Below, piece by piece: positions 7,766 through 20,299 of a stretch of 64,000 bases of DNA; the first letter of the stretch is position 1; every line of letters begins with the position of its first letter. Origin of the DNA: an uncultured Gammaproteobacteria bacterium (GTDB taxonomy: Bacteria; Patescibacteriota; Patescibacteriia; SG8-24); contig CAZBFO010000001.1 of the NCBI GenBank assembly GCA_964491475.1, positions 189,265-253,264 of the forward strand. The letters are read 5' to 3'. The translations under genes were made by a program, and so were the position numbers. The notes below the pieces were generated by a model. It was given only the letters and a program-made list of their open reading frames with translations, was not told the DNA's origin and searched no databases.

Positions 7766-8959
7766 ATGCCTACACAAAAATTCATTTTCCAGGGCATTAC
7801 TTCGGAAACACACAAATCTGGTGTTGCATGGCTTTTGGCAACTGCAGATATCCAAAAAATCTTAATGAGCGTGGCCTTCATCAGCGAAGAAGGTGTGGCA
7901 CAGATTGAAAATGATTTGCGAAGCCACGCGACAAGTACCGAGTTTTTTGCAGGGATCCGTAATGAGATAACTTCTCGTCAAGCACTCGCCCGTCTCATTG
8001 GTTTAGGCGCGACTTTGTTTACGGTTGATACCGGTTCAAAGGGCACGCTTTTCCATCCAAAGTTATACTTTGCCAAAGGGCAAAATTTTGCGCGTCTCAT
8101 AGTGGGTAGCGCAAACCTGACTGCTGGTGGCCTCAACGATAATATTGAAGCCAGTATCGCCCTCGAGCTCGATCTTGCTCAAGCCAATGATTCTGCGCTC
8201 AGCGACGATGTCGAGCGGCTGTTGGGTGACATGGTATCCAATCATCCCAGTAACGTAAAAAGAATTTCTGCCGCCACCGAGCTTGATGTGCTACTGAACA
8301 ATGGCTTATTAATTGACGAAAGCCTCGCCGCGCCCCCTCGCGCGGCGACTAAAGGATCTAGCCCGTCGAGCGATATTGTTCCCCGGATTCAGCTGAGCAC
8401 CACCCGGCTGAACCGCATCGTCGCACGCGCACGCACCACTCCTCGACAGGTTCCCCAAGCCGCCAGGGCGGGCCGCTCAACCCAAGCCTCGCCACAAGCA
8501 TCTCCAGCTCCTTTGCTGACCGGGATTGAATTGGTATGGCAAAGCAAACCCCTGGAGGAAAGTGACCTAAACATCCCGAGCGGCAACAACACCCACCCCA
8601 AGGGCTCCATGAGCCTCGATCAGGGTACCCTAGACCCCTCGGTTGATTTCCGTCATTACTTCCGAAATACCGTTTTTCCGCAATTAACTTGGACGGTGAG
8701 TACACGCACCCCTGACGGAGAAGAGGCCAGCGCAAAGTGTGAGCTAATTGTAAAAGGGATTTCCTACGGAGTACATGAATTGACTATCAGTCACCACACA
8801 TCAACGACATCGACCACCTACAGGCAGCGAGGCCCGACGACCCGTCTTCGATGGGGCGCCATGAAAAGTCTTGTAGCCACTCCCGTTTTGCTTGGCCGAA
8901 CACTTTCACTTTACAAGAATACCGCAAGTTCAGACCGCTTTGTTATTGATATTGACTGA
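7766..8959 (+). CDS. PLD-family (HKD nuclease) restriction endonuclease, BfiI/NgoAVII-like
   Basis: HPKLYFAKGQNFARLIVGSANLTAGG carries the HxK...GSxN PLD motif. It is followed by a C-terminal domain of DNA-binding size. Its 3' end overlaps a convergent N6A MTase. The start is taken at the internal Met (MPTQKF) because the longer ORF begins inside the promoter. Confidence 0.6.
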   Translation: MPTQKFIFQGITSETHKSGVAWLLATADIQKILMSVAFISEEGVAQIENDLRSHATSTEFFAGIRNEITSRQALARLIGLGATLFTVDTGSKGTLFHPKLYFAKGQNFARLIVGSANLTAGGLNDNIEASIALELDLAQANDSALSDDVERLLGDMVSNHPSNVKRISAATELDVLLNNGLLIDESLAAPPRAATKGSSPSSDIVPRIQLSTTRLNRIVARARTTPRQVPQAARAGRSTQASPQASPAPLLTGIELVWQSKPLEESDLNIPSGNNTHPKGSMSLDQGTLDPSVDFRHYFRNTVFPQLTWTVSTRTPDGEEASAKCELIVKGISYGVHELTISHHTSTTSTTYRQRGPTTRLRWGAMKSLVATPVLLGRTLSLYKNTASSDRFVIDID

Positions 8960-10596
8960 GCGTTATTTTGCTCGGACGCGGTTCTTTGCCGTCGATTTCG
9001 GAGATTTATCCAATTTTCAAAAATCAACTCTCTTTCGGTTGCCGTCAAGCCCAAATCACCCAAGAGCTTGCGATCCTGCTTGCCCAGCACCGCCTCAGTG
9101 GACAAAGTTCGGACGTCATAATCGAGCTCCTTGATGTTAATCTTCACTCCCTTGGGCATGGGAATCAGCAGTCGCTCGATCTCGGACGGAACAAGTTCCA
9201 ATACACCTCCGCCGTAATGCCTACCCTCCAGCTCCGCACTTAACGAGGTGAGCGAATTTACGAAATTACCGACCAAGACATTCCCCGAAACGCTGTTTGG
9301 CTTAATTCTATATGCAGTGTCAGTGGTAAAAGCGTTTAGCTTGTTCACAATAAGCCTCGGAGTATTGCTCGAACGCTTAAGCATGCCAATCTCGGTTGCA
9401 TGCACAGAAGGAACGGAATACCAAGGCTTTCGAACGCTACACTTATAGCGAGTGTTCAGCTTTTGCCGTTCGCCAAACGCAATGTATTTTCTGGCGGCGG
9501 CATCCTTTGCTGCTGACTTATCAGGGAACCAGATGAAGTTTGTCGGGTAGCCCTTTTGAGCGTTCTCTGCGTGCTGCCGAGCGTCGTAAATAACCCCGGG
9601 GCAGTGCCCACTCCTCCCGAACATCGGGTGTGACCATTTCTCCAACCCATACTCTTGGACGGTATCATCATCCACCAGAAAAAAATCGTTCGCGCCGGTC
9701 ACGATGCCAACGTCGACTGCTGCAATATCAATGAATTGTTTTACGTATTCTTGGTTTGCCAGATCTGACAGAATCGACCGCATCTTTGACGCAAGGAGTG
9801 CGTAGGTCCACTTTCCCTTATTGACATCCGTGTTCATCAACTTTGGCGCGTTAAACACCTCAGAGGGATTCAACTTTAGAAACTCTTTTCCTTGCACAGG
9901 ATAAATGCCGACGCCTTCATTAAAGCCCTTGGGGCCGCGGCGTTTTTCAGCCATCAAGAGGACCGCACCCTGGAGCGTATTACCAAACCAGATTTCCTGA
10001 GGGTCAACGATTACGACTCTCCGACACTCTCGTCCAAGAAATGCTCGCAGCGAGCCAGCGTGGGCTACGTGGATTATTTCCGAAGGCACCACCATCGCCA
10101 AACGACCTCCAGGCCGAAGCATCGCAAGGGATGCTGCAATAAATGGCACCCACGCGTTCGTATGCTTAGTGAAGTCGAGGTTTAGGTGCGAAAAAATTTG
10201 CGCGGCACGTGCTTGGAATTTCTCTGGTAGATACTGATAGCGGATGAATGGCGGATTACCCAAAATGGCATCGAAGGTGGTGTTACCGCGCATTTCTTCG
10301 GTTGCCCAGCCGAGATAGTCACCCTGAACGATTCTTGCCTTCGGAAGAAGACCGCGTACTCGCCTCGCAGACTTCGCGGCCTCGTCTTCGTCCAGCTCAA
10401 GGCCGGTGACGGTGCTATTTGCAAATCCACCAACCTTCGCGAGTGCTTCAAAAAAAATTCCGTCCCCGCAACTAGGCTCGAGGATGTTTGCCGGCTTAAT
10501 TTCCTTCACCCAGCGGCTCAAAAAAACTGCCAAATCTAAGGAAGTGTAGTAGCCGCCCCTAAGCTTTTGTGCACTCTCATTAGCCCTAAAGTTCAT
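8911..10596 (-). CDS. N6-adenine-specific DNA methyltransferase (gamma class, Eco57I/TaqI-like) with a C-terminal target-recognition region
   Basis: ILEPSCGDGIFF is the SAM-binding FxGxG motif and AILGNPPFIRY is catalytic motif IV (NPPF). The gene is low GC and sits opposite the PLD nuclease. Confidence 0.8.
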   Translation of the reverse strand: MNFRANESAQKLRGGYYTSLDLAVFLSRWVKEIKPANILEPSCGDGIFFEALAKVGGFANSTVTGLELDEDEAAKSARRVRGLLPKARIVQGDYLGWATEEMRGNTTFDAILGNPPFIRYQYLPEKFQARAAQIFSHLNLDFTKHTNAWVPFIAASLAMLRPGGRLAMVVPSEIIHVAHAGSLRAFLGRECRRVVIVDPQEIWFGNTLQGAVLLMAEKRRGPKGFNEGVGIYPVQGKEFLKLNPSEVFNAPKLMNTDVNKGKWTYALLASKMRSILSDLANQEYVKQFIDIAAVDVGIVTGANDFFLVDDDTVQEYGLEKWSHPMFGRSGHCPGVIYDARQHAENAQKGYPTNFIWFPDKSAAKDAAARKYIAFGERQKLNTRYKCSVRKPWYSVPSVHATEIGMLKRSSNTPRLIVNKLNAFTTDTAYRIKPNSVSGNVLVGNFVNSLTSLSAELEGRHYGGGVLELVPSEIERLLIPMPKGVKINIKELDYDVRTLSTEAVLGKQDRKLLGDLGLTATERELIFENWINLRNRRQRTASEQNNAQSISITKRSELAVFL

Positions 10597-10697
10597 AGTA
10601 CCTACTTACGCACAATACACAGTGATGGTACTTGAACTGGGGCATATATCCCAGATAAGTTATACCCCCCCACACTCTAGTGCCGCTATTCCGCCCC

Positions 10698-12455
10698 TTA
10701 AGCTTTGGTTGGCTCACCGATATGAGGTTCATTCGGCGTCACGAAAGTCCCTTGAGCCTTGAGCAGCCCCGCATAAGCCCCACCCCGAGCCACGAGCTCC
10801 TCATGCCGCCCGCTCTCCGCAATCCGCCCGTCCTTCAAAACAAGAATCACATCCGCATCCTGCACCGTCCGTAACCGGTGGGCGATGATGAACGTCGTGC
10901 GGTCCTTCATCAAAACGTCGAGCGCGTTCCGCACGGCTTCCTCGGTCTTGCTGTCCAAGTGCGCCGTCGGTTCATCCAAAACGATGATCTTCGGCTTTCG
11001 CAGGAACGCCCGTGCCAACGCCACGCGCTGGCGCTCGCCTCCGGACAACTTCAGGCCGCGTTCGCCGACCATCGTGTTCAGGCCTTCGGGCAGCGCGGCC
11101 ACAAAGGTTTCAAGGCTGGCCAGGCGGACGGCCTCGCGGATCTCCTCTTCGCTGGCCTCGGGGCGGCCGTAGCGGATGTTGAAGCCGAGGGTTTCGTGGA
11201 AGAGGGTCAGGTCTTGGGGGACGTAGGACATCTGGCGGCGCAGGGACACCAAGTTGAGGTCGGCGGCGTTGCGGCCGTCGACCGTGATCTCGCCGGACTG
11301 GGGCAGGTAGTAGCGGCCGAGCAGGTCGACCATGGTGGTCTTGCCCTCGCCCGACTCGCCGACGATGGCCACGCGCTGGCCGGCCTTCACGGCGAACGAC
11401 ACGTCTTCCAGCGTCGGCTTGTCCTCGCTGTAGCGGAAGCGGACGTGACGGTATTCGACGTCGCCGCGCAGCTCGATGGCCTCGCCGCTCATGAAGTCCT
11501 CGGCAGGCTCGGATTCGATATCCTGAATGTCTTTGAGCGCGGCGGACATCCGCATGACCGAACGAAGCTGCCATTGGCAGTAGCGGATGTACCCGAAGAT
11601 GGCGAAGGTGTAGGCGGTGATGGTCGTGACGCGGCCAAAGGTGAACCGTCCGGCGCCGAAGTCCAGCACGGCCAGCAGCAATGCCGCGAACGATCCAAAG
11701 GAGATGATCAGGTTTTGGGTGTTGAGCACGCGCATGTCGATGCCGAAGTCCTCGGCGATGACCGCGCGGAACTCATCGCTGTACTGCTTGAGCGTGGTCG
11801 CGACGAACTGTTCGTTGGTGGTCGACTTCACCACCAGGGCGTTGCGCACGGAATCCCAGCCGAACGACGAAATCTTGCGATCGGCCTTGTTCCACTCCTT
11901 GCGGCTCTCCATCACCTTGGAAAGCGTCGAGCCGGTATACGACATGAAGGCGCAGATGGCCGCCAGCAGAGCCGCCGAAATGCGCCAGTCCAAATACGCC
12001 ACGTATCCCAAAATGCCCACGATGGCCAACAGTGCCGGCCACAAGTCGAACACGATGCCGCTGATGACGTTGTCCACGTCCCAGCGCAGACGGTTCACCG
12101 CCTCGGAAGTCTCGGCGCTTTTCCTGCCGTAATGAAAGGCCAGCGGCTTGTTGAGGATGACCAGCATCAACCGGCGCACCAAGCTTTCGGAGGCGTCCGT
12201 GGATACTTGCTGCCCGCGCTGCAACGTAAAGGAACGCAAGCGCTCCGAAATCACACGCAGTACGAACCAGCCGGCCAAGAAGCCGCCAGCCACCACGAAG
12301 CCCGAGCCGCCCCGAACCAAATCGAACCCACGCCCCATGGCGATGGGAGCGACCGTATCCAAACCGGCTGTCACCACGGAAAGCGCGGTGAAGGCGACGA
12401 CGGTGCGGGAATAAGGCTTGAGTTCGCGCTGGAGGAAGCGGGCGACAGGGTGCAT
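10698..12455 (-). CDS. ABC transporter, fused permease/ATP-binding half-transporter (MsbA-like exporter)
   Basis: Six-TM N-terminal domain. Walker A GESGEGKTT, ABC signature LSGGERQRVALARA and Walker B IIVLDEPTAHLD are all present. Confidence 0.85.
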   Translation of the reverse strand: MHPVARFLQRELKPYSRTVVAFTALSVVTAGLDTVAPIAMGRGFDLVRGGSGFVVAGGFLAGWFVLRVISERLRSFTLQRGQQVSTDASESLVRRLMLVILNKPLAFHYGRKSAETSEAVNRLRWDVDNVISGIVFDLWPALLAIVGILGYVAYLDWRISAALLAAICAFMSYTGSTLSKVMESRKEWNKADRKISSFGWDSVRNALVVKSTTNEQFVATTLKQYSDEFRAVIAEDFGIDMRVLNTQNLIISFGSFAALLLAVLDFGAGRFTFGRVTTITAYTFAIFGYIRYCQWQLRSVMRMSAALKDIQDIESEPAEDFMSGEAIELRGDVEYRHVRFRYSEDKPTLEDVSFAVKAGQRVAIVGESGEGKTTMVDLLGRYYLPQSGEITVDGRNAADLNLVSLRRQMSYVPQDLTLFHETLGFNIRYGRPEASEEEIREAVRLASLETFVAALPEGLNTMVGERGLKLSGGERQRVALARAFLRKPKIIVLDEPTAHLDSKTEEAVRNALDVLMKDRTTFIIAHRLRTVQDADVILVLKDGRIAESGRHEELVARGGAYAGLLKAQGTFVTPNEPHIGEPTKA

Positions 12456-12575: not shown

Positions 12576-13187
12576 CTACGCCGTTACACGATCGAGAAAG
12601 CGGCATGCATTCGCCTGCAATGAACGCCCAACGATGCTCCGCGCGGCTTGTATGGCATCACCGCAGTTGTCGAAGACGAACGCGCGGTCCTTTTGACGGA
12701 ACAGGCGCTTGAACTCCGAATGATTTGCCCGTGCGTCTTGCTCGATTCCGTCCGGCTCCAGGGAACGAATCCTGCCGGTCATTCGGACGTCATGGTGCCG
12801 GCGACGTAGCACGGCATCAGTCGAAGCATTGAGCATAAAGTACGCCCTGCCGTACGGCCGAAACGCCTCGTCCCACATGCACTCGCGGCGCGTAATTCCA
12901 TTCTGCCTGATGCAGACAACCAAGTGCATCTCGCAGACGATCAACGGCGCCTGAGCGTGCAGGGCAAACGCCCTGAGCAGCGCCGATCGCAGCACCTCCC
13001 GCTTCGCAATAACGGATATCCGCTCAATCTCCTCACGGGAAGCGCCGTCGAAGGCGTGCCGCAAGACCTCCGAGCTCGATATCCGCACCGATCCTCTGAC
13101 CATGCTGACCGAGTGACCTGCTATGGTCGATTTTCCGACGCCGTTGATGCCGAACAGAAAGCAGACGTTTTTCATGATGGCCTCCAC
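12576..13187 (-). CDS. P-loop NTPase, small nucleotide/nucleoside kinase-like protein
   Basis: FLFGINGVGKSTIAG is a Walker A motif. Its size of about 200 aa fits NMP-kinase or shikimate-kinase-like folds. It lies downstream in the same orientation as the Ham1-like and ThyA-like genes. Confidence 0.5.
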   Translation of the reverse strand: MEAIMKNVCFLFGINGVGKSTIAGHSVSMVRGSVRISSSEVLRHAFDGASREEIERISVIAKREVLRSALLRAFALHAQAPLIVCEMHLVVCIRQNGITRRECMWDEAFRPYGRAYFMLNASTDAVLRRRHHDVRMTGRIRSLEPDGIEQDARANHSEFKRLFRQKDRAFVFDNCGDAIQAARSIVGRSLQANACRFLDRVTA

Positions 13188-13238
13188 GCCCTGAATGGGC
13201 GCCAGCCGCGTCGTCCGTTTGACGGCGCGGAAAGGCGA

Positions 13239-14201
13239 CTATTCAGGAGAAGCAAAGCGGCTTAGGAATCTGGCCAGCGCAGGCACCTCGGAAGTCCTGC
13301 CGCGCTCTTCGGGCGGCATTTCCGCATAGGTCAGTCCCGCGGGATTGGCAGCGGTCACCGGAATCAAGATCTTATCCATCGGGTACGAAGGGAACGTGCC
13401 TCGGGGTTCTTCGGAAAACCTGACCGGCACCTCGCTCACTTCCACGGACATCTGGAAGCCGTCAAAGAACGCGGCGGCGTTTCGTCTGCTCCCGTTTCGG
13501 TTTTCGACGCCCGCCAGGAGCCGCAACAGGCCCTCCGGCTTCAATTTGGTTGCGGCCTGTTTGGAGTTCGGACCGGGAAAGCCCTCATAGGCGTCCATGA
13601 AAATGCCGCCGTCGGTGCAGAGCACCGGTCTTCCCACGATTGCGTATGCACGTCGCGCCTTGTCGTCGGCAATTTTCTCGATGCTGTCATGTTTCAGTTC
13701 TGGAAGATCAAAGTCGCAAGCGTGGAGGTGCGGATGTTCGACCGCCGAACGCATTTCGCGCAACTTCATCGGATTGCTGGTGACAAAATAAACGGAGTCG
13801 GGGAACGGCCGATGGAATGCGACGACCGTGACACCAGTTTCTTCGTCGTCAGACTGCGCGGTCGGCACCCAGCCGAGTCCGCGCATCGAGCTGCGAATCC
13901 ACCTCGGATCAAAACCGCCGCAGGTACGAACGCGCTCAAAGTCGAAGACCGCATACGTGCCGACCCGAGACAGCCTCGTGAGCTCGGCCATATGCAACTG
14001 CGCTTCGACCTTGTCCGCCGTCAGACGGAGCACGTTCCTCGACGTGAGCACGTCGAACGCGCAAGGCGTCACTGGCATGCCTAACATGATCACCTCCAAA
14101 CACCTTGGCGACTCCAATGCGTCAAGCACTCCCGTGAGCACCGTTTCAAAACGCACGATGTTTCGCCTGCTTACTTCCTCGTTCTGCATGTCGACTCTCA
14201 T
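13239..14201 (-). CDS. Fusion protein: unknown N-terminal domain joined to a Ham1/ITPase-like non-canonical NTP pyrophosphatase domain
   Basis: The C-terminal half carries VYFVTSNPMKLREM (Ham1 S/TxNxxKxxE motif), DFDLPE and DGGIFMDAYEGFPGP. The start is chosen at the Met (MRVDMQ) that overlaps the upstream ThyA-like stop in an ATGA arrangement. Confidence 0.55.
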   Translation of the reverse strand: MRVDMQNEEVSRRNIVRFETVLTGVLDALESPRCLEVIMLGMPVTPCAFDVLTSRNVLRLTADKVEAQLHMAELTRLSRVGTYAVFDFERVRTCGGFDPRWIRSSMRGLGWVPTAQSDDEETGVTVVAFHRPFPDSVYFVTSNPMKLREMRSAVEHPHLHACDFDLPELKHDSIEKIADDKARRAYAIVGRPVLCTDGGIFMDAYEGFPGPNSKQAATKLKPEGLLRLLAGVENRNGSRRNAAAFFDGFQMSVEVSEVPVRFSEEPRGTFPSYPMDKILIPVTAANPAGLTYAEMPPEERGRTSEVPALARFLSRFASPE

Positions 14202-14971
14202 ACCATTCCCGCCATTAACGGCATTAACCTTGGCATCTTTTGCGCGGCGCACTCATTTAGGTACGAACTGACCGTCTCGAGAGCGGCATCATAGGTGTTC
14301 TGATAGATGTGGCCGTCCGTAATCATTCCGTCGATGAAGCCCATGCGTACCGGCGCACTGAGCGTTGACGACAACCGACGCCCCACCTCCTGCGCCAGCA
14401 GTGAGAAAATCACCAAATCGCTGACGTTCTTCTGGAAGATGTCCTGCGAACGCATGTTGTAAATGGTGTTGAGCATGTAGCCGTTGTCGTTCTTGCGGAG
14501 ACGGAACTGCAACGAAACGATACAGGGGAGATAGTCGTTATAGGGCGAATCCAGCACCTTGCCGTAATCCTCGTACGTCGGGAACACCATGACCGCCTTT
14601 TTGGATTCGGGAATTTCCGTCAGCCGTTTCACCACGAAATCGATCATTCGCCCCTCATGCAGCCTCGCATGATAGCTTTTCGCGCCCACGCGAAAGTTCG
14701 GCGTGATGTCGAAGTCTTCCATGACGGGGGACTCGAACACCAGACGGCGCATCTTCTCGATGTTGGCGGCGTTGCCGTAGCGCTCGACCAAGAAATCCTT
14801 TTCGCCGTGCGACCGCACCTTGAGCCGAAGCATCGGCAATGCGAACCTGCCCCGGTTCTCGTCGGGATCGTAAGCCCCGTTCTTAATGACGCACTCGACT
14901 GCCGCCAACCAAGCCTCACCGATAGTGTCTCCGGCAACCGAGTAGCCGAAGCATTCGTGGAAATTAATCAT
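14198..14971 (-). CDS. Thymidylate-synthase-fold pyrimidine C5-methylase/hydroxymethylase homolog
   Basis: [10 protein letters not shown] aligns with the ThyA PCH catalytic Cys loop. [20 protein letters not shown] aligns with [28 protein letters not shown] aligns with GDTHLY. Aligned by eye, Asp occupies the position of the specificity Asn of E. coli ThyA. Confidence 0.6.
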   Translation of the reverse strand: [257 protein letters not shown]

Positions 14972-15152
14972 AGGTGTGATGTGGATAAGTATGGGGTAGT
15001 CGTAACAGACCTCCTAAATACTGTCAAGCCTTTGACAACTTATTATTTACAAAGTGACAGATGGTCATACATAATTAATGCTTAAAGTCCGAAAAAGCTT
15101 GCGTTAATGTCAGCTCTCGACTACCCTCGCGCCCGCCGGTAATCGGACAAGC

Positions 15153-15569
15153 ATGGGTGATTTTCTAAAACGTTTCTTGGAATGGTCACAGCTTAAAATG
15201 GCACTGCATCAATTGCACAAAACGGTGCGATGCAAGGAGCGCGAAATATGGTGGGTGCACCTAGGGGTAAACGTAGGCGACGAAGAGGACGGCAAGAATG
15301 CGTCGTTCGAAAGACCAGCTATCATCATTAGGAGATTTTATGGCGGCAAGATACTTTGGGTTATTCCTCTCACAACATCAAAGAGAGATGGCGATTATTA
15401 CTTCAGCACCCGCTACACTAACTCAAACGGAAAAGTAATTGATCAATTCGCCATGATCCCGCACTTACGTGCAATCAGCCAAAAAAGGCTGGTACGCAAA
15501 TTGCGGATGCTGTCGAAAATCGAGTTCTCATCGTTAGCAGAACGAATAAAACAGTTCTTGGACACATAA
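15153..15569 (+). CDS. MazF/PemK-like endoribonuclease toxin homolog (orphan; no adjacent antitoxin ORF)
   Basis: REIWWVHLGVNVG...ERPAIIIRRF...ILWVIPLTTSKRDGDYYF parallels MazF GDLIWVDFDP...RPAVVLSPF...CLCVPCTTQSKGYPFEV. Confidence 0.5.
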   Translation: MGDFLKRFLEWSQLKMALHQLHKTVRCKEREIWWVHLGVNVGDEEDGKNASFERPAIIIRRFYGGKILWVIPLTTSKRDGDYYFSTRYTNSNGKVIDQFAMIPHLRAISQKRLVRKLRMLSKIEFSSLAERIKQFLDT

Positions 15570-15743
15570 AAAACGACACCCCGTCTGCCGAAGCAGGACG
15601 GGGCGTCTCGGAGCCCGAAGGCACTTGTACGGCTAGGCTACCACTGCCCGCACGGGCGGTCAAGAAACCCATCACATCGGAATTTTTTCGCCTCATTCAG
15701 CATTATTGTCAATACAAACACCTCGTGGCACAATGACCCCCGT

Positions 15744-17072
15744 ATGTTGGACCCCAAACTCATCCGAGAAAACCCCGAGGTGGTCAAAGCCGCCGCCAAG
15801 AACAAGCGCGTGAACGTCGACGTGGACGCCATCGTCTCGTTGGATTCGCAGAAGCGCAAGCTCCAACAGGAGTCCGAAGCCATCAAGGCCGAACAGAACA
15901 AGGCATCGGCTGAAATCGCCAAACTCTCCGCCGAAGAACGTCCCAGCAAGCTCGAGGCAGTCAAAAAGCTCAAAGAATCTTTCAAGGAGCTGGAAGAAAA
16001 GATGACCGCCATCGACGCCGAGCTGCAGCCGCTCCTCTTGAAGCTGCCCAACATCCCCAGCGACGACACGCCAATCGGCCCGGACGAGACCGGCAACGTC
16101 GTGCTGCGCCAAGTGGGGGAGATGCCCAAGTTCGATTTCCCGATCCGCGACCATGTGGAACTCGGCAAGATCAACGATCTCATCGACAACGACCTCGGTG
16201 CCGCCGTGGCCGGCGCACGCTTCACCTACCTGAAGGGCGACTTGGTGCTGCTGCAGATGGCCATGGTCAACTACGCCTTCGCGCTGCTCACCGACCGCGG
16301 TGCCCTTGAACGCATCATCGCCGAAGCCGACCTGCACGACGTCGTGGCCACCCCCTTCGTCCCCGTGGTGCCGCCGCTGATGATCAAGCCCGACGTGTAC
16401 CAGCGCATGGCCCGCCTTGAGCCGCGCGAGGAGCGCTACCACATCCCCAGCGACGACCTCTACCTCATCGGCAGCGCCGAGCATACCCTCGGCCCCATCC
16501 ACATCGACGAGACCATCGACGAGACCCGCCTGCCGCTCCGCTACGTCGCTGCCACCGCCGCCTTCCGCCGCGAGGCCGGCTCGTACGGCAAGGACACCCG
16601 CGGCATCATCCGCCTGCACCAGTTCGACAAGGTCGAGATGGAATCGTTCTCCGCCCCCGAACAGTCGCGCGGCGAGCACGAGTTCTTCGTGGCCGTCCAA
16701 GAGCACATCTGCAAGGCTTTCGGGATTCCATACCAGGTGGTGCAATCCTGCACCGGCGACCTCGGCGATCCGAACGCCCGCAAGATCGACATCGAATGCT
16801 GGATGCCCGGCCAGGGAACCTACCGCGAAACCCACTCCGCCGACTACATGACCGACTACCAGACCCGCCGCCTCGCCACGCGCGTGAAGCGCCGCGAGGG
16901 CGGGAACGAGTTGGCGCACACCAACGACGCGACCTGCATCGCCATCGGGCGCATGCTGGTGGCGGTGATGGAGAATCATCAGCGCGAGAACGGGACGATT
17001 GGCGTGCCGGAAGTGCTGGTGCCTTATATGTTGGGGCGGACGGTGGTTGGGGGAACAGAAAAAAAATCCTAA
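15744..17072 (+). CDS. serS: Seryl-tRNA synthetase
   Basis: N-terminal coiled-coil arm followed by class II core motifs (FRREAGSYGKDTRGIIRLHQFDKVE). Confidence 0.9.
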   Translation: MLDPKLIRENPEVVKAAAKNKRVNVDVDAIVSLDSQKRKLQQESEAIKAEQNKASAEIAKLSAEERPSKLEAVKKLKESFKELEEKMTAIDAELQPLLLKLPNIPSDDTPIGPDETGNVVLRQVGEMPKFDFPIRDHVELGKINDLIDNDLGAAVAGARFTYLKGDLVLLQMAMVNYAFALLTDRGALERIIAEADLHDVVATPFVPVVPPLMIKPDVYQRMARLEPREERYHIPSDDLYLIGSAEHTLGPIHIDETIDETRLPLRYVAATAAFRREAGSYGKDTRGIIRLHQFDKVEMESFSAPEQSRGEHEFFVAVQEHICKAFGIPYQVVQSCTGDLGDPNARKIDIECWMPGQGTYRETHSADYMTDYQTRRLATRVKRREGGNELAHTNDATCIAIGRMLVAVMENHQRENGTIGVPEVLVPYMLGRTVVGGTEKKS

Positions 17073-17081
17073 CGAGAGTAA

Positions 17082-17118
17082 GACCATGCCGCGTTTCAGG
17101 ATGCGGCATGGTCTTTTC
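17082..17118. terminator. Bidirectional rho-independent terminator between serS and the OLD-family gene
   Basis: aagaccatgccgcgtttcaggatgcggcatggtcttttcc forms a 12-bp stem followed by a T-run. A second hairpin aagcggcctgatggccgctttt lies at about 17139-17163. Confidence 0.55.
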
Positions 17119-17165
17119 CTAATGCGAGCGTGGCACCAAAAAGCGGCCTGATGGCCGCTTTTCAG

Positions 17166-18908
17166 CTACTTCTCGGCGGCCAAAGCGTCGAAAAGGCCGT
17201 CGAAGAACTTGGAGACGGATTTCCTGCCGCGCGCCTCCTTTGCGACCAAAAACTGAAAATGCGTTCGCTTGAGGTTGGTGTTGGCAATGTGGCGGCTGTG
17301 AAAGGTCTCGAGCATCTTCTTGCCGTCATAGAACTCGCGCCGGCGGCCATCCTTCTTTATCGAGGCCACTGCAACCTCGGCATTCTTTTGGAGTTTCGCG
17401 ACCTCCTCTGCCGAGAATTTCATCTGAAGCTCTGCAATGAAATCTCCGACCTGCTTCGCGAGCTCGGTGAGCGGCCGCTTCGGGCGGAAACCGTGAAAAC
17501 CGAGAGCCTTGTGGACCCGTCGCTCTATCTCATCCGCCTCCATCTCGTCGGAAATTTTGTCGAGCGCCGCGACAACGTCCTCCTTCGATTTCAGGTCTGT
17601 CTGCTCGACTACGACCTCAATTGCCCTCCAGATGGCGTCAGGATCAATGAGGAAGTTCTCGACCACGGACACAGGTAGGACAAACACGTCCTCGGGCACC
17701 TCTGGCGGAAAACCGACATCCTGATCGACCAAGGCGAAGACCTTGAGGCCACTGCTAAATCCGTCGAGCGCGCTCGAAAGACGCGATCTCAAGCTCATGC
17801 ATTCACTTTTTCCTCCACCAGGGATAACGGTGGCTCCGTCAAACCTTTGGCTAAGTGCACGGAAGAGTTTCCGCGCGCCGACGGCATTCTTCGCCTGCTC
17901 ATCACCCACGCCCTCTGCGATGATGACTGGCTGCATCGCGGTCAGATTGGAAGTACTGCCGAACAGCTCGCGCAAGACGGACAGACGCTCGTCATCGGCG
18001 GCAATCGGAATCAGCTGGTTTTCTCCGTCGGCCACCAGCTCGACTGGCCGCATCAGAAATAGCTCCTCAAAGGATGCATTCTCTACAATGGACGGGGAGT
18101 GGGTCGCAACAATCACCTGTGTATCCTCTTCGGCGGCAAGCACGCGGAGGTAGTCGAGCACTTTCATCTGCAAGTTCGGGTGCAGGTGTAACTCCGGTTC
18201 GTCTATGAGAACACACAAGTCGGTCTTGGCCTTGGGGGCGGAGCGACCATGAAGACCGTCGAGCGCCTCACGAACACGATGTTCGATCAGGGGATAGAAC
18301 ATCTGGATAATCGACTTCTCGCCAGAACTCAGGTCATCGAGGTCCACTTCAGTCGGCTTGCCGTGGACACGCCACACGCACCGAATGTTATCGCGATTCG
18401 ATGTGTCGATCTTCACGAACTCAAGGTGCGGCAATAGACTCTTCGTTAGAGCGCGAAACGGCTCCCAGACGTCGTCGATGGTGCCCTTGAGAATCTCTTG
18501 ATCTCGGTCGAATCGCGCCGTGATAGCTTCCTTCCTGCCAACGTCGATCTGGCAGAGCCCGTGCTTCAGGTAGTTGTATGCGTCATCAACGTTCCACGCG
18601 TCGCGGCTTCCACCCGCAAGAAGATTGATACCCTCGTAGCCCGATACCGATGTCTGTGTGAGGATTTCCTCCAGCTTGATGTCCTGACTTGCTAGGTGGC
18701 GTTGTTGCACTGTCTGCTTGCGCATGGCGCGAGCGGGGCCAACGTAGAGTACGCCGCTGGTGCGGCCGCCGGAGTTTCGGAGTTCGTTCAGGAGTGTGGA
18801 TTTGCCGCAGCCGTTCGGACCGGCGATGATCATCAGACTCGGGACAGCGACGCACTCGGCGAGCCGAACGGCCCGCTTATCGGTGATTTTGAATTCGGGA
18901 ATGCGCAT
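17166..18908 (-). CDS. OLD-family nuclease (ABC-type ATPase with a C-terminal Toprim domain), standalone class 1
   Basis: Walker A GPNGCGKST, signature-like LSSGEKS, Walker B LCVLIDEPELHLHP and H-loop ATHSP are present. The C-terminus carries VIIAEGVGDE...LVDQD Toprim acidic motifs. The start is taken at the internal Met (MRIPEF). No helicase or other partner gene is adjacent. Confidence 0.7.
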   Translation of the reverse strand: MRIPEFKITDKRAVRLAECVAVPSLMIIAGPNGCGKSTLLNELRNSGGRTSGVLYVGPARAMRKQTVQQRHLASQDIKLEEILTQTSVSGYEGINLLAGGSRDAWNVDDAYNYLKHGLCQIDVGRKEAITARFDRDQEILKGTIDDVWEPFRALTKSLLPHLEFVKIDTSNRDNIRCVWRVHGKPTEVDLDDLSSGEKSIIQMFYPLIEHRVREALDGLHGRSAPKAKTDLCVLIDEPELHLHPNLQMKVLDYLRVLAAEEDTQVIVATHSPSIVENASFEELFLMRPVELVADGENQLIPIAADDERLSVLRELFGSTSNLTAMQPVIIAEGVGDEQAKNAVGARKLFRALSQRFDGATVIPGGGKSECMSLRSRLSSALDGFSSGLKVFALVDQDVGFPPEVPEDVFVLPVSVVENFLIDPDAIWRAIEVVVEQTDLKSKEDVVAALDKISDEMEADEIERRVHKALGFHGFRPKRPLTELAKQVGDFIAELQMKFSAEEVAKLQKNAEVAVASIKKDGRRREFYDGKKMLETFHSRHIANTNLKRTHFQFLVAKEARGRKSVSKFFDGLFDALAAEK

Positions 18909-19081
18909 AATAAAAAGTGATATTGACTGGCCGATCTTAGCACTCGCAACGGTGAAGTGCCAAGAGCGTTTAGACCCAAGGTTCTTGAGCCGTGACCGGA
19001 GCATCAAGTACCGATCCAAACGGTTTTCCCATATCCACACCCCGTTGTTTTTCCCGCGCCCAAGTGTCAAAATAAGCTCAC

Positions 19082-20299
19082 ATGCCGCACCGGCCCTCCG
19101 GTCTGTTTTCGCCGTGCAGTTATCCCCATATCGAAAATATCGCCATGCCCTCTGCCGCCAAAAGACCCTATAAAACCTGGGTGGAAGTCTCCAAAAGCGC
19201 GCTGCTGAACAACGCCCTGGTGTTGAAGTCTGCGGCTGGCCGCAAGACGATGCTGATGTCGGTCATCAAGTCGAACGCCTACGGCCACGGCATTGCCGAG
19301 ACCGTCCGCGTGTTGGCCAAGGGGCCCACGGACTGGTTCGGCGTCGACTCCGTCCGCGAGGCCGAGCTGGTCCGCGCTTCGGGGACCAACAAGCCGATCC
19401 TGGTGCTGGGCTACACGCCGTTCAGCGACGCACTGCGCGCGGTCAAACAGGGGTTCAGCCTCACGGTCTACAACCGCGAGAACATCGCCGCCCTGAACAA
19501 AGCGGCCACGGCCAAGCGTCCGGCCAAGATCCACCTCAAGCTGGAGACGGGCACCTCGCGCCAAGGGCTTCTCAAAAAGGACCTGCCCGCGTTCCTGACC
19601 TTCCTCAAGAAGCGCAAGAACGTGGTGCTCGAAGGCGTCTCCACCCACTACGCCAACATCGAGGACACCACCGACTCCACCTACGCCATGGGGCAACTGG
19701 AGCGGTTCCTCACCATGGTCGCCACGGTCCGCCATGCGGGGTTCGACCCCAAGCTGGTGCACACGGCCTGCTCTGCGGCGGCGCTGCTGTATCCGGAGAC
19801 GCACTTCACCATTGTCCGCGCGGGCATCGCGCAGTACGGACTGTGGCCTTCCAAGGAAACGAAGGTGTCGGCCATCCTGAAACGGAAGAGCATCATCCTG
19901 AAACCGGCGCTCACCTGGAAGACCATCGTGGCGCAGGTGAAGACGCTGCCGGAAGGCGCACCGGTCAGCTACGGTCTCACCGAGAAGCTGGCGCGCGAAT
20001 CCAAAGTGGCCGTGGTGCCGGTGGGGTATTGGGACGGGTTTGATCGCAAGCTGTCGTCGGTGGGGCACGTGCTGGTGCGTGGCAAGAGCGCCAAGGTGCT
20101 GGGCCGCGTCTGCATGAACATGTTCGTGGTCGACGTCACCGACATCCCGGGCGTGCGCGTGGAAGACGAAGTTGTGCTGCTCGGCAGGCAGGGCAAAGAA
20201 GTCATCACTGCCGAAGACATCGCTTCATCAGTCGGCACCATCAACTACGAGATCGTCACGCGCATCAATCCGCTGATTCCTCGCGTCCTGGTTTCCTGA
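19082..20299 (+). CDS. alr: Alanine racemase
   Basis: VIKSNAYGHGI is the PLD-lysine motif. A C-terminal beta domain is present. The true start may be the Met at about 19145 (MPSAAKRPYK). Confidence 0.85.
   Translation: MPHRPSGLFSPCSYPHIENIAMPSAAKRPYKTWVEVSKSALLNNALVLKSAAGRKTMLMSVIKSNAYGHGIAETVRVLAKGPTDWFGVDSVREAELVRASGTNKPILVLGYTPFSDALRAVKQGFSLTVYNRENIAALNKAATAKRPAKIHLKLETGTSRQGLLKKDLPAFLTFLKKRKNVVLEGVSTHYANIEDTTDSTYAMGQLERFLTMVATVRHAGFDPKLVHTACSAAALLYPETHFTIVRAGIAQYGLWPSKETKVSAILKRKSIILKPALTWKTIVAQVKTLPEGAPVSYGLTEKLARESKVAVVPVGYWDGFDRKLSSVGHVLVRGKSAKVLGRVCMNMFVVDVTDIPGVRVEDEVVLLGRQGKEVITAEDIASSVGTINYEIVTRINPLIPRVLVS

Follow-up and report, generated by a model that had tools for sequence, protein, structure and literature searches.

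A probable merged PARIS gene of the AriAB type, inserted as a single gene between serS and alr

The stretch of DNA analysed here, referred to as the window, comprises 64,000 nucleotides of contig CAZBFO010000001.1, and the gene of interest lies on its minus strand at 17166–18908, between serS and alr. It encodes a single protein in which an ABC ATPase is followed by a Toprim nuclease. On balance this protein is likely to be a merged AriAB of the PARIS lineage, working by the general mechanism of such systems. Merged ariAB genes have been described before, in clades named 'merged 1' and 'merged 2' (PMC9122126, PMC11464382), and PARIS as a whole is class 4 of the OLD-like systems (PMC11464382); the gene in the window is a distant and compact member of this already known fused form. 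It was acquired as a one-gene insertion between serS and alr. A preliminary description of the same DNA had classed it differently, as a stand-alone class 1 OLD nuclease.

The open reading frame (ORF) is intact and starts with an ATG at 18908, giving 580 codons and a stop. An alternative, longer ORF from a TTG reaches 19070, but the ATG is taken as the start because the N-terminal consensus of 40 homologues (MRIPSF...) agrees with the protein's own MRIPEF. Database searches found at least 589 homologues, with a top E-value of 1e-205; the best 120 are 549–678 amino acids (aa) long, nearly all of them 560–610 aa, and 49–55% identical. With so many homologues of similar length, this is a genuine gene and no chance ORF. 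Every ATPase and Toprim motif quoted in the preliminary description is found in this one translated protein, namely GPNGCGKST at aa 30–38, LSSGEKS at aa 193–199, the Walker B and D-loop region CVLIDEPELHLHP at aa 232–244 (in the shorter quoted form VLIDEPELHLHP, aa 233–244), ATHSP at aa 268–272, AEGVGDE at aa 331–337 and DQD at aa 395–397.

The assignment to merged PARIS comes first of all from profile searches. For the whole protein the best PADLOC model is AriAB (PDLC02981; E = 2.6e-56, 189.7 bits), which aligns aa 133–560 with profile positions 263–674 of 694, while the models for PtuA, AriA, retron ATPase-Toprim and GajA reach 1e-15 to 1e-22 and are more than 30 orders of magnitude worse. 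AriAB is also the best PADLOC model in all 41 aligned family members, in which the Old model reaches 1e-22 at best. Single-gene PARIS fusions have been detected with a dedicated profile (AAA_15+DUF4435) at a cut-off of 80 bits and called as loners (PMC9122126), and the 189.7 bits found here exceed this cut-off, on the assumption that the fusion profile of DefenseFinder is the source of the PADLOC one. Standard defence-finding tools should recognise the gene as merged PARIS. Among its relatives, AriAB scores of 128–200 bits are seen in seven longer proteins (about 670–700 aa) and in two of 573 and 619 aa. Searched exhaustively with phmmer, the C-terminal half gave 171 clusters among 1.84 billion representatives; in the longer matches (about 470–700 aa) the domain follows an N-terminal part of about 300–320 aa, as expected for fusions, and the shorter ones may be genes that stand alone or ORFs truncated on short contigs. 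The protein thus resembles known merged ariAB PARIS in being one polypeptide with an AAA_15/AAA_21 ABC ATPase before a DUF4435-type Toprim and a helical bundle, in scoring well above the published cut-off, and in being encoded by a stand-alone 'loner' gene; it differs in its length of 580 aa, compared with about 700.

The C-terminal half carries most of the discrimination. Taken alone, the C-terminal 281 aa match only AriAB (1.6e-18, profile positions 411–674) and AriB (1e-3) in PADLOC, with no match to the Old, GajA or retron models. This half consists of an AriB-type Toprim domain (aa 328–422, minus strand, 17643–17927) and, at the C-terminus, a bundle of helices (aa 423–580, minus strand, 17169–17642), which is all-helical in the AlphaFold2 model and equivalent to the helical/dimerisation domain of AriB. 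AlphaFold2 models were built with the alignment of 41 family members. The model of the C-terminal half alone has a pLDDT (predicted local distance difference test) of 90, and that of the full chain a pLDDT of 88 and a pTM (predicted template modelling score) of 0.82, with a confident, fixed packing of the two halves. Neither the C-terminal half (phmmer, E up to 10) nor the family profile found any AriB, OLD or RNase M5 chain among the sequences of the PDB, where only ATPase matches were returned, and structure comparison was therefore needed. When the C-terminal half was compared with the whole PDB using Foldseek (E <= 0.01), only the AriB chains 8ux9_A and 8v46_D were found, the former with an E-value of 9.9e-4, a probability of 1.00 and 329 alignment columns, about the full chain of 306 residues, and the latter with a probability of 0.99. 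The published metal ligands of AriB are E26, D30, D88, E90 and E122 (PMC10802264). Residues E332, D336, D395, D397 and E417 of the window protein follow the same order with similar spacing, as judged from motif order and not from superposition, and E332, D395, D397 and E417 are invariant in the family; the nuclease motif is DxE in E. coli AriB and DxD here. The helical bundle has invariant basic residues as well (R463, R523, K530 and R562). Pfam DUF4435 is matched by 17 of the 41 family members, with a best E-value of 5e-6. The C-terminal Toprim proposed earlier is a genuine one, but it is of the AriB kind and has an AriB-type helical bundle behind it.

The N-terminal half (aa 1–300, minus strand, 18009–18908) is an AriA-like ABC ATPase according to Pfam, PADLOC and the AlphaFold2 model, in which it is compact and has no coiled-coil bundle. 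It matches Pfam AAA_15 (E = 1e-19, 71.9 bits, cut-off 32.1) and AAA_21 (E = 3e-16, 60.7 bits, cut-off 27), and when searched alone against PADLOC it again matches AriAB best (3.6e-32), followed by PtuA (1.6e-22) and AriA (2.9e-22). All its motifs lie on the minus strand. Walker A (GPNGCGKST with K36, 18795–18821) is invariant in 41 sequences, as are the ABC signature LSSGEKS (18312–18332) and Walker B (CVLIDEPE with D236 and E237, 18192–18215, followed by the D-loop LHLHP) in the family alignment, and the H-loop ATHSP with H270 (18093–18107) is nearly so. The insert in the ATPase is short, about 100 aa in the AlphaFold2 model; between K36 of Walker A and D236 of Walker B there is one long helix (aa 111–136) and one short helix (aa 149–158).

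Several observations weigh against the assignment to PARIS. A score of 190 bits on a profile of 694 positions marks a distant member, and about 130 profile positions in the ATPase insert are left without a counterpart. Walker A and Walker B lie 200 aa apart here, compared with 353 aa in E. coli AriA (K39 to D392). The protein's own match to DUF4435 is below threshold (E = 0.17, aa 359–446), and in the structural alignments identity to AriB is 10–12% with a template modelling (TM) score of about 0.4. Foldseek with the whole chain ranks the retron Eco8 effector and then the Thermus scotoductus OLD protein (Ts OLD) first, with E-values of about 5e-7. This search is undiscriminating, since retron Eco8, Ts OLD (6p74, second, E = 7e-7), PtuA and GajA are all found near 1e-6, and the order is driven by the ATPase half. 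Lastly, no experiment on a merged AriAB was found in the literature searched, and trigger, substrate and oligomeric state are inferred.

The alternative that survives best is the class originally proposed, a nuclease that truly belongs to OLD class 1, as do P2 Old, Ts OLD and the class 1 OLD of Vibrio cholerae, and that would defend the cell by introducing nicks into DNA or degrading it. In the OLD scheme gene context decides the class, and class 1 consists of single genes (PMC10568477). The gene in the window is indeed single and has no conserved partner, all family members match the PADLOC Old model to some degree, and the whole chain is structurally similar to Ts OLD (6P74). However, the Old matches are explained by the ATPase half that both groups have in common, and the C-terminal half alone matches only AriAB and AriB. 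The OLD-like Toprim family PF20469 is absent from the Pfam matches of the window protein up to E = 1 and from the 25 Pfam families matched by most of the 41 members, and the Toprim domain is instead of the DUF4435/AriB type. The window protein also differs from class 1 OLD proteins in the 160-aa helical bundle that follows its Toprim domain, in an ATPase that appears to have no inserted dimerisation domain of the size seen in Ts OLD, and in its expected substrate, which would be RNA and not DNA. Class 1 OLD nucleases are characterised by DNA exo/endonuclease activity and by a catalytic lysine (K562 in Bp OLD) that is absent from AriB and RNase M5. Altogether a true class 1 OLD nuclease is unlikely. 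By homology the gene is merged PARIS, with AriAB as best model and PF20469 absent, and because the OLD scheme rests on gene context the label 'class 1' is defensible only in that contextual sense. Where context is the sole criterion, 'OLD class 1' can become a wrong label for fused PARIS genes.

Other known systems with a similar ATPase were considered and rejected. Gabija (OLD class 2) would need a UvrD/PcrA-like GajB helicase, but the neighbours are serS and alr, and the GajA matches (1e-15 to 1e-17) cover the ATPase only. A type I-B retron (OLD class 3) does not fit a locus with no reverse transcriptase gene and a window with no Rfam match. Septu is not supported either, with no partner gene and a PtuA model that matches the ATPase half only. 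Nor is the gene of the PrrC anticodon nuclease type, which is embedded in a type I R-M (restriction-modification) operon and has a PrrC-type nuclease domain at the C-terminus: the gene sits between serS and alr, and the sole Pfam link to PrrC is a weak AAA_13 match (E = 0.002). No helicase, reverse transcriptase or small partner ORF was found within or adjoining the inserted segment. The claim that there is no Gabija, retron or AriB partner nearby was therefore right about the helicase and the reverse transcriptase, but the C-terminal half is itself AriB-like.

The mechanism proposed for the window protein is modelled on that of E. coli PARIS (PMC11464382; PMC12409363). The protein would be a single-chain PARIS, with the AriA-like ABC ATPase (aa 1–300) as sensor and switch, joined to a two-metal Toprim nuclease that resembles AriB and includes the helical bundle (aa 325–580). 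By analogy, the ATPase half would hold the nuclease half inactive in the uninfected cell. A trigger made by the phage, together with ATP binding or hydrolysis, would then cause a conformational change that lets two nuclease halves pair as an AriB-like dimer, and the paired nuclease would cleave RNA of the host. Specific tRNAs are the most likely targets, and the cut ends would be 3'-OH and 5'-P. Cleavage of tRNA would arrest translation and abort the infection. That tRNA in particular is the substrate has, on this analogy, about an even chance of being right.

The details of E. coli PARIS cannot simply be carried over. In the complex from E. coli B185 (AriA6-AriB3, PDB 8UX9 and 8V46) the nuclease is a separate protein that is released, whereas in the window protein it is fused and not releasable. 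E. coli AriA also builds its hexamer and binds Ocr through a four-helix coiled-coil (IS1/IS2); the AlphaFold2 model of the window protein lacks it, although this coiled-coil is a feature of the E. coli complex and lies outside the definition of the PARIS family. Because of the much shorter distance between Walker A and Walker B, neither release and dimerisation nor recognition of Ocr can be transferred as such. With the nuclease not releasable and the Ocr-binding coiled-coil missing, activation should take place inside one fused chain or between several, probably by head dimerisation that ATP drives, and something other than Ocr could be the trigger. A fusion that lacks the coiled-coil would offer a simple model, within one protein, of the gating of a Toprim nuclease by an ABC ATPase.

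The neighbourhoods of the homologues were compared in 11 contexts, on which all the following counts rest. Genome and metagenome scans gave one close relative (L002), the rest being distant, among the matches listed. No conserved neighbour is seen in seven of the 11 contexts, which are the window itself, L002, L026, L030, L033, L035 and a Gloeobacter plasmid, where RefSeq names the homologue 'AAA family ATPase'. In three others (L025 6537–11451, L028 6695–12787 and L096 59–7495) the gene lies between hsdS and hsdM of a type I restriction-modification (R-M) operon, and in L096 it overlaps both hsd neighbours by 4 bp. The remaining homologue (L034 581–16069) is part of a DISARM-like operon with a SNF2 protein, an MmeI-type methylase, a helicase, a DUF1998 protein and a PLD protein. 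Homologues embedded in R-M operons make up a subclade, in which identity is 60–72% among members and 50–52% to the window protein. The search for a conserved partner suggested by the preliminary description thus found none in the 11 contexts, and no cognate partner had been missed; the family is one without a conserved partner gene. An arrangement with a homologue between hsdS and hsdM was not found mentioned for PARIS in the literature searched. Some tie to restriction is expected for PARIS, since it senses the anti-restriction protein Ocr, and the homologues in type I R-M and DISARM-like operons tie PARIS-type sensors to restriction at the level of the genome, in a way that can be tested. 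Two further observations concern these neighbourhoods. The homologues embedded in type I R-M operons have McrBC, Mrr or NERD genes next door, and in L033, about 0.8 kb downstream of the homologue P0069, there is a stand-alone RelA_SpoT-domain protein of 332 aa (10525–11523), which could act in defence like CapRel or be a toxic small alarmone synthetase.

These arrangements bring to mind PrrC, whose gene occupies an analogous slot inside the type IC EcoprrI locus and which also targets tRNA (PMC12707154). Both proteins combine an ABC-like NTPase with a nuclease and would be expected to stop translation once restriction has been subverted, and some homologues of the window gene take the same slot between type I R-M genes. 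They differ in their nuclease domains, which are unrelated (Toprim versus the C-terminal domain of PrrC), and in that the window gene lies outside any R-M locus. One could therefore imagine the window protein as a guardian of restriction that depends on a resident R-M complex as PrrC does on EcoprrI, and stays latent until a phage inhibits that complex; its partner would be either the type II R-M pair in the window (7766–10596), about 6.5 kb away, or an R-M system elsewhere in the genome. The three homologues between hsdS and hsdM, one of them with overlaps on both sides, the fourth in the DISARM-like operon, and the precedent of prrC speak for such a dependence. However, the window gene, placed between housekeeping genes, forms a transcription unit of its own that has a promoter-like site and a terminator; seven of the 11 contexts have no R-M neighbour; the R-M-embedded homologues are a subclade of their own; and in E. 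coli neither type I R-M nor BREX is needed in the cell for PARIS to work (PMC9122126). Dependence on a restriction complex is on these grounds slightly less probable even than a class 1 OLD nuclease.

The reading of the window gene as merged PARIS can be extended into a fuller account, which is put forward tentatively and as a whole is rather less likely than not to hold in every part. It would describe a compact PARIS without the coiled-coil that makes the hexamer and binds Ocr, with an intrachain hold on the nuclease, ATP-driven head-to-head dimerisation and triggers other than Ocr. The hsdS-hsdM subclade would have converged on the role of PrrC with a Toprim nuclease, sensing the state of the restriction complex itself, and the copy in the window would be a module freed from such an operon and captured by a probable Patescibacteria genome of the candidate phyla radiation (CPR). 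In public records the family members seen are named 'AAA family ATPase', 'hypothetical protein' or as ATPase subunits of ABC transporters, where the present evidence assigns them to PARIS.

The acquisition of the gene can be read from its flanks, which are serS (plus strand, 15744–17072) on one side and alr on the other (plus strand, inside ORF 19082–20299, with the true start probably at 19145); beyond alr come ddl, an FtsQ-like gene and ftsH. The placement between serS and alr is as first described. The closest serS relatives are L036 and L037, with 88% and 83% amino acid identity in serS, and in both of them serS is directly followed by alr, ddl and the same downstream genes. In blastn comparison, synteny with L036 is lost at position 17052 of the window and regained at 19166, so that 2113 bp here (17053–19165, GC content 0.56) replace 101 bp there; the breakpoints against L036 and L037 and the gene maps define this inserted segment. 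This gene is the only plausible ORF in it and comes together with a promoter-like site and a terminator. The composition of the gene also sets it apart, with a GC content of 0.570 and a GC content at third codon positions (GC3) of 0.70, compared with 0.629 and 0.86 in both serS and alr. Both the lower GC content and the independent acquisition as a single-gene cassette had been proposed before and are borne out by these comparisons. No target-site duplication and no direct or terminal inverted repeats were found at the borders of the insert. An origin from a phage or satellite was considered and is unsupported, as no close family members were found on viral contigs or in phage records. A housekeeping role in DNA repair or the cell cycle, like that of the archaeal OLD-family ATPase Cran1, for which a non-defence role is reported (PMC12796447), would suit a place among the core genes serS, alr, ddl and ftsH, but it is very improbable for a gene that is missing at this site in its nearest relatives, deviates from its neighbours in codon composition, and belongs to a patchy, highly divergent family that recurs in restriction operons and on a plasmid.

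Transcription signals are consistent with a separate unit. At the 3' end two hairpins adjoin each other. One is the terminator hairpin of the convergent serS (plus strand, 17080–17115), the inverted repeat I3, with perfect stems of 13 bp, -28.9 kcal/mol, a z-score of -5.2 and a U-run. The other is the intrinsic terminator of the ariAB-like gene itself (minus strand, 17139–17162), the inverted repeat I7, with a perfect 10-bp stem and a U-run (-22.1 kcal/mol, z-score -4.5), which begins 4 nt past the stop codon. On the 5' side the gene has a divergent region of 236 bp in common with alr, in which no terminator was found. The gene had been described as bracketed by terminators, which is correct for its 3' end, with two strong hairpins, but not for its 5' end. 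The 5' region contains a sigma-70-like promoter site (minus strand, 18934–18963; TTGGCA, an 18-nt spacer and TG-TAAGAT), which comes from a consensus scan only and carries no evidence of function. No tRNA genes and no Rfam families at gathering threshold were found in the whole window.

The site next to serS is variable in this lineage, since L038, with a serS 91% identical to that of the window, carries other small genes there. On its contig (1–6976) these are genes for proteins of 81 aa, 159 aa (UCP032817-like) and 199 aa downstream of serS in place of alr, and a gene with a SocA_Panacea domain lies upstream of serS. The host is probably a member of the Patescibacteria (CPR), as judged solely by the named relatives of its serS, which are 57–67% identical and a few of which bear discordant names. 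If the host is indeed one of the small-genome Patescibacteria, such genomes acquire abortive-infection modules at a variable spot adjacent to serS. More generally, accessory and toxin-antitoxin-type cargo seems to gather in the flanks of serS in the lineage, as at a hotspot. On the other side of serS there is a second small insertion relative to L036 (window 15077–15694, about 0.6 kb here and 116 bp there), which holds a lone PemK/MazF-like toxin gene on the plus strand, from 15153 or 15198 to 15569 (Pfam PemK_toxin, E = 6e-10). It has a GC content of 0.446, a GC3 of 0.52 and a promoter-like site at 15046–15075, and an antitoxin ORF is not evident. Next to it, at 12576–14971 on the minus strand, lies a three-gene module of a thymidylate-synthase-like gene (weak PF00303 match), a Ham1-like NTP pyrophosphatase with an N-terminal extension of 150 aa, and an AAA_17-type kinase. 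This module is present in L036 and absent in L037 and L038, has no match in PADLOC, and may serve nucleotide modification or the nucleotide pool. The type II R-M pair at 7766–10596 has a low GC content (about 0.51) and consists of a methyltransferase on the minus strand (8911–10596; PADLOC MTase_II, E = 1e-182) and a convergent, overlapping PLD-like candidate endonuclease on the plus strand (7766–8959) with weak matches to REase_II and DrmC. Since L036 has a type I R-M system (hsdS, hsdR) in the same place, the region to the left of the ABC transporter is a variable defence spot as well.

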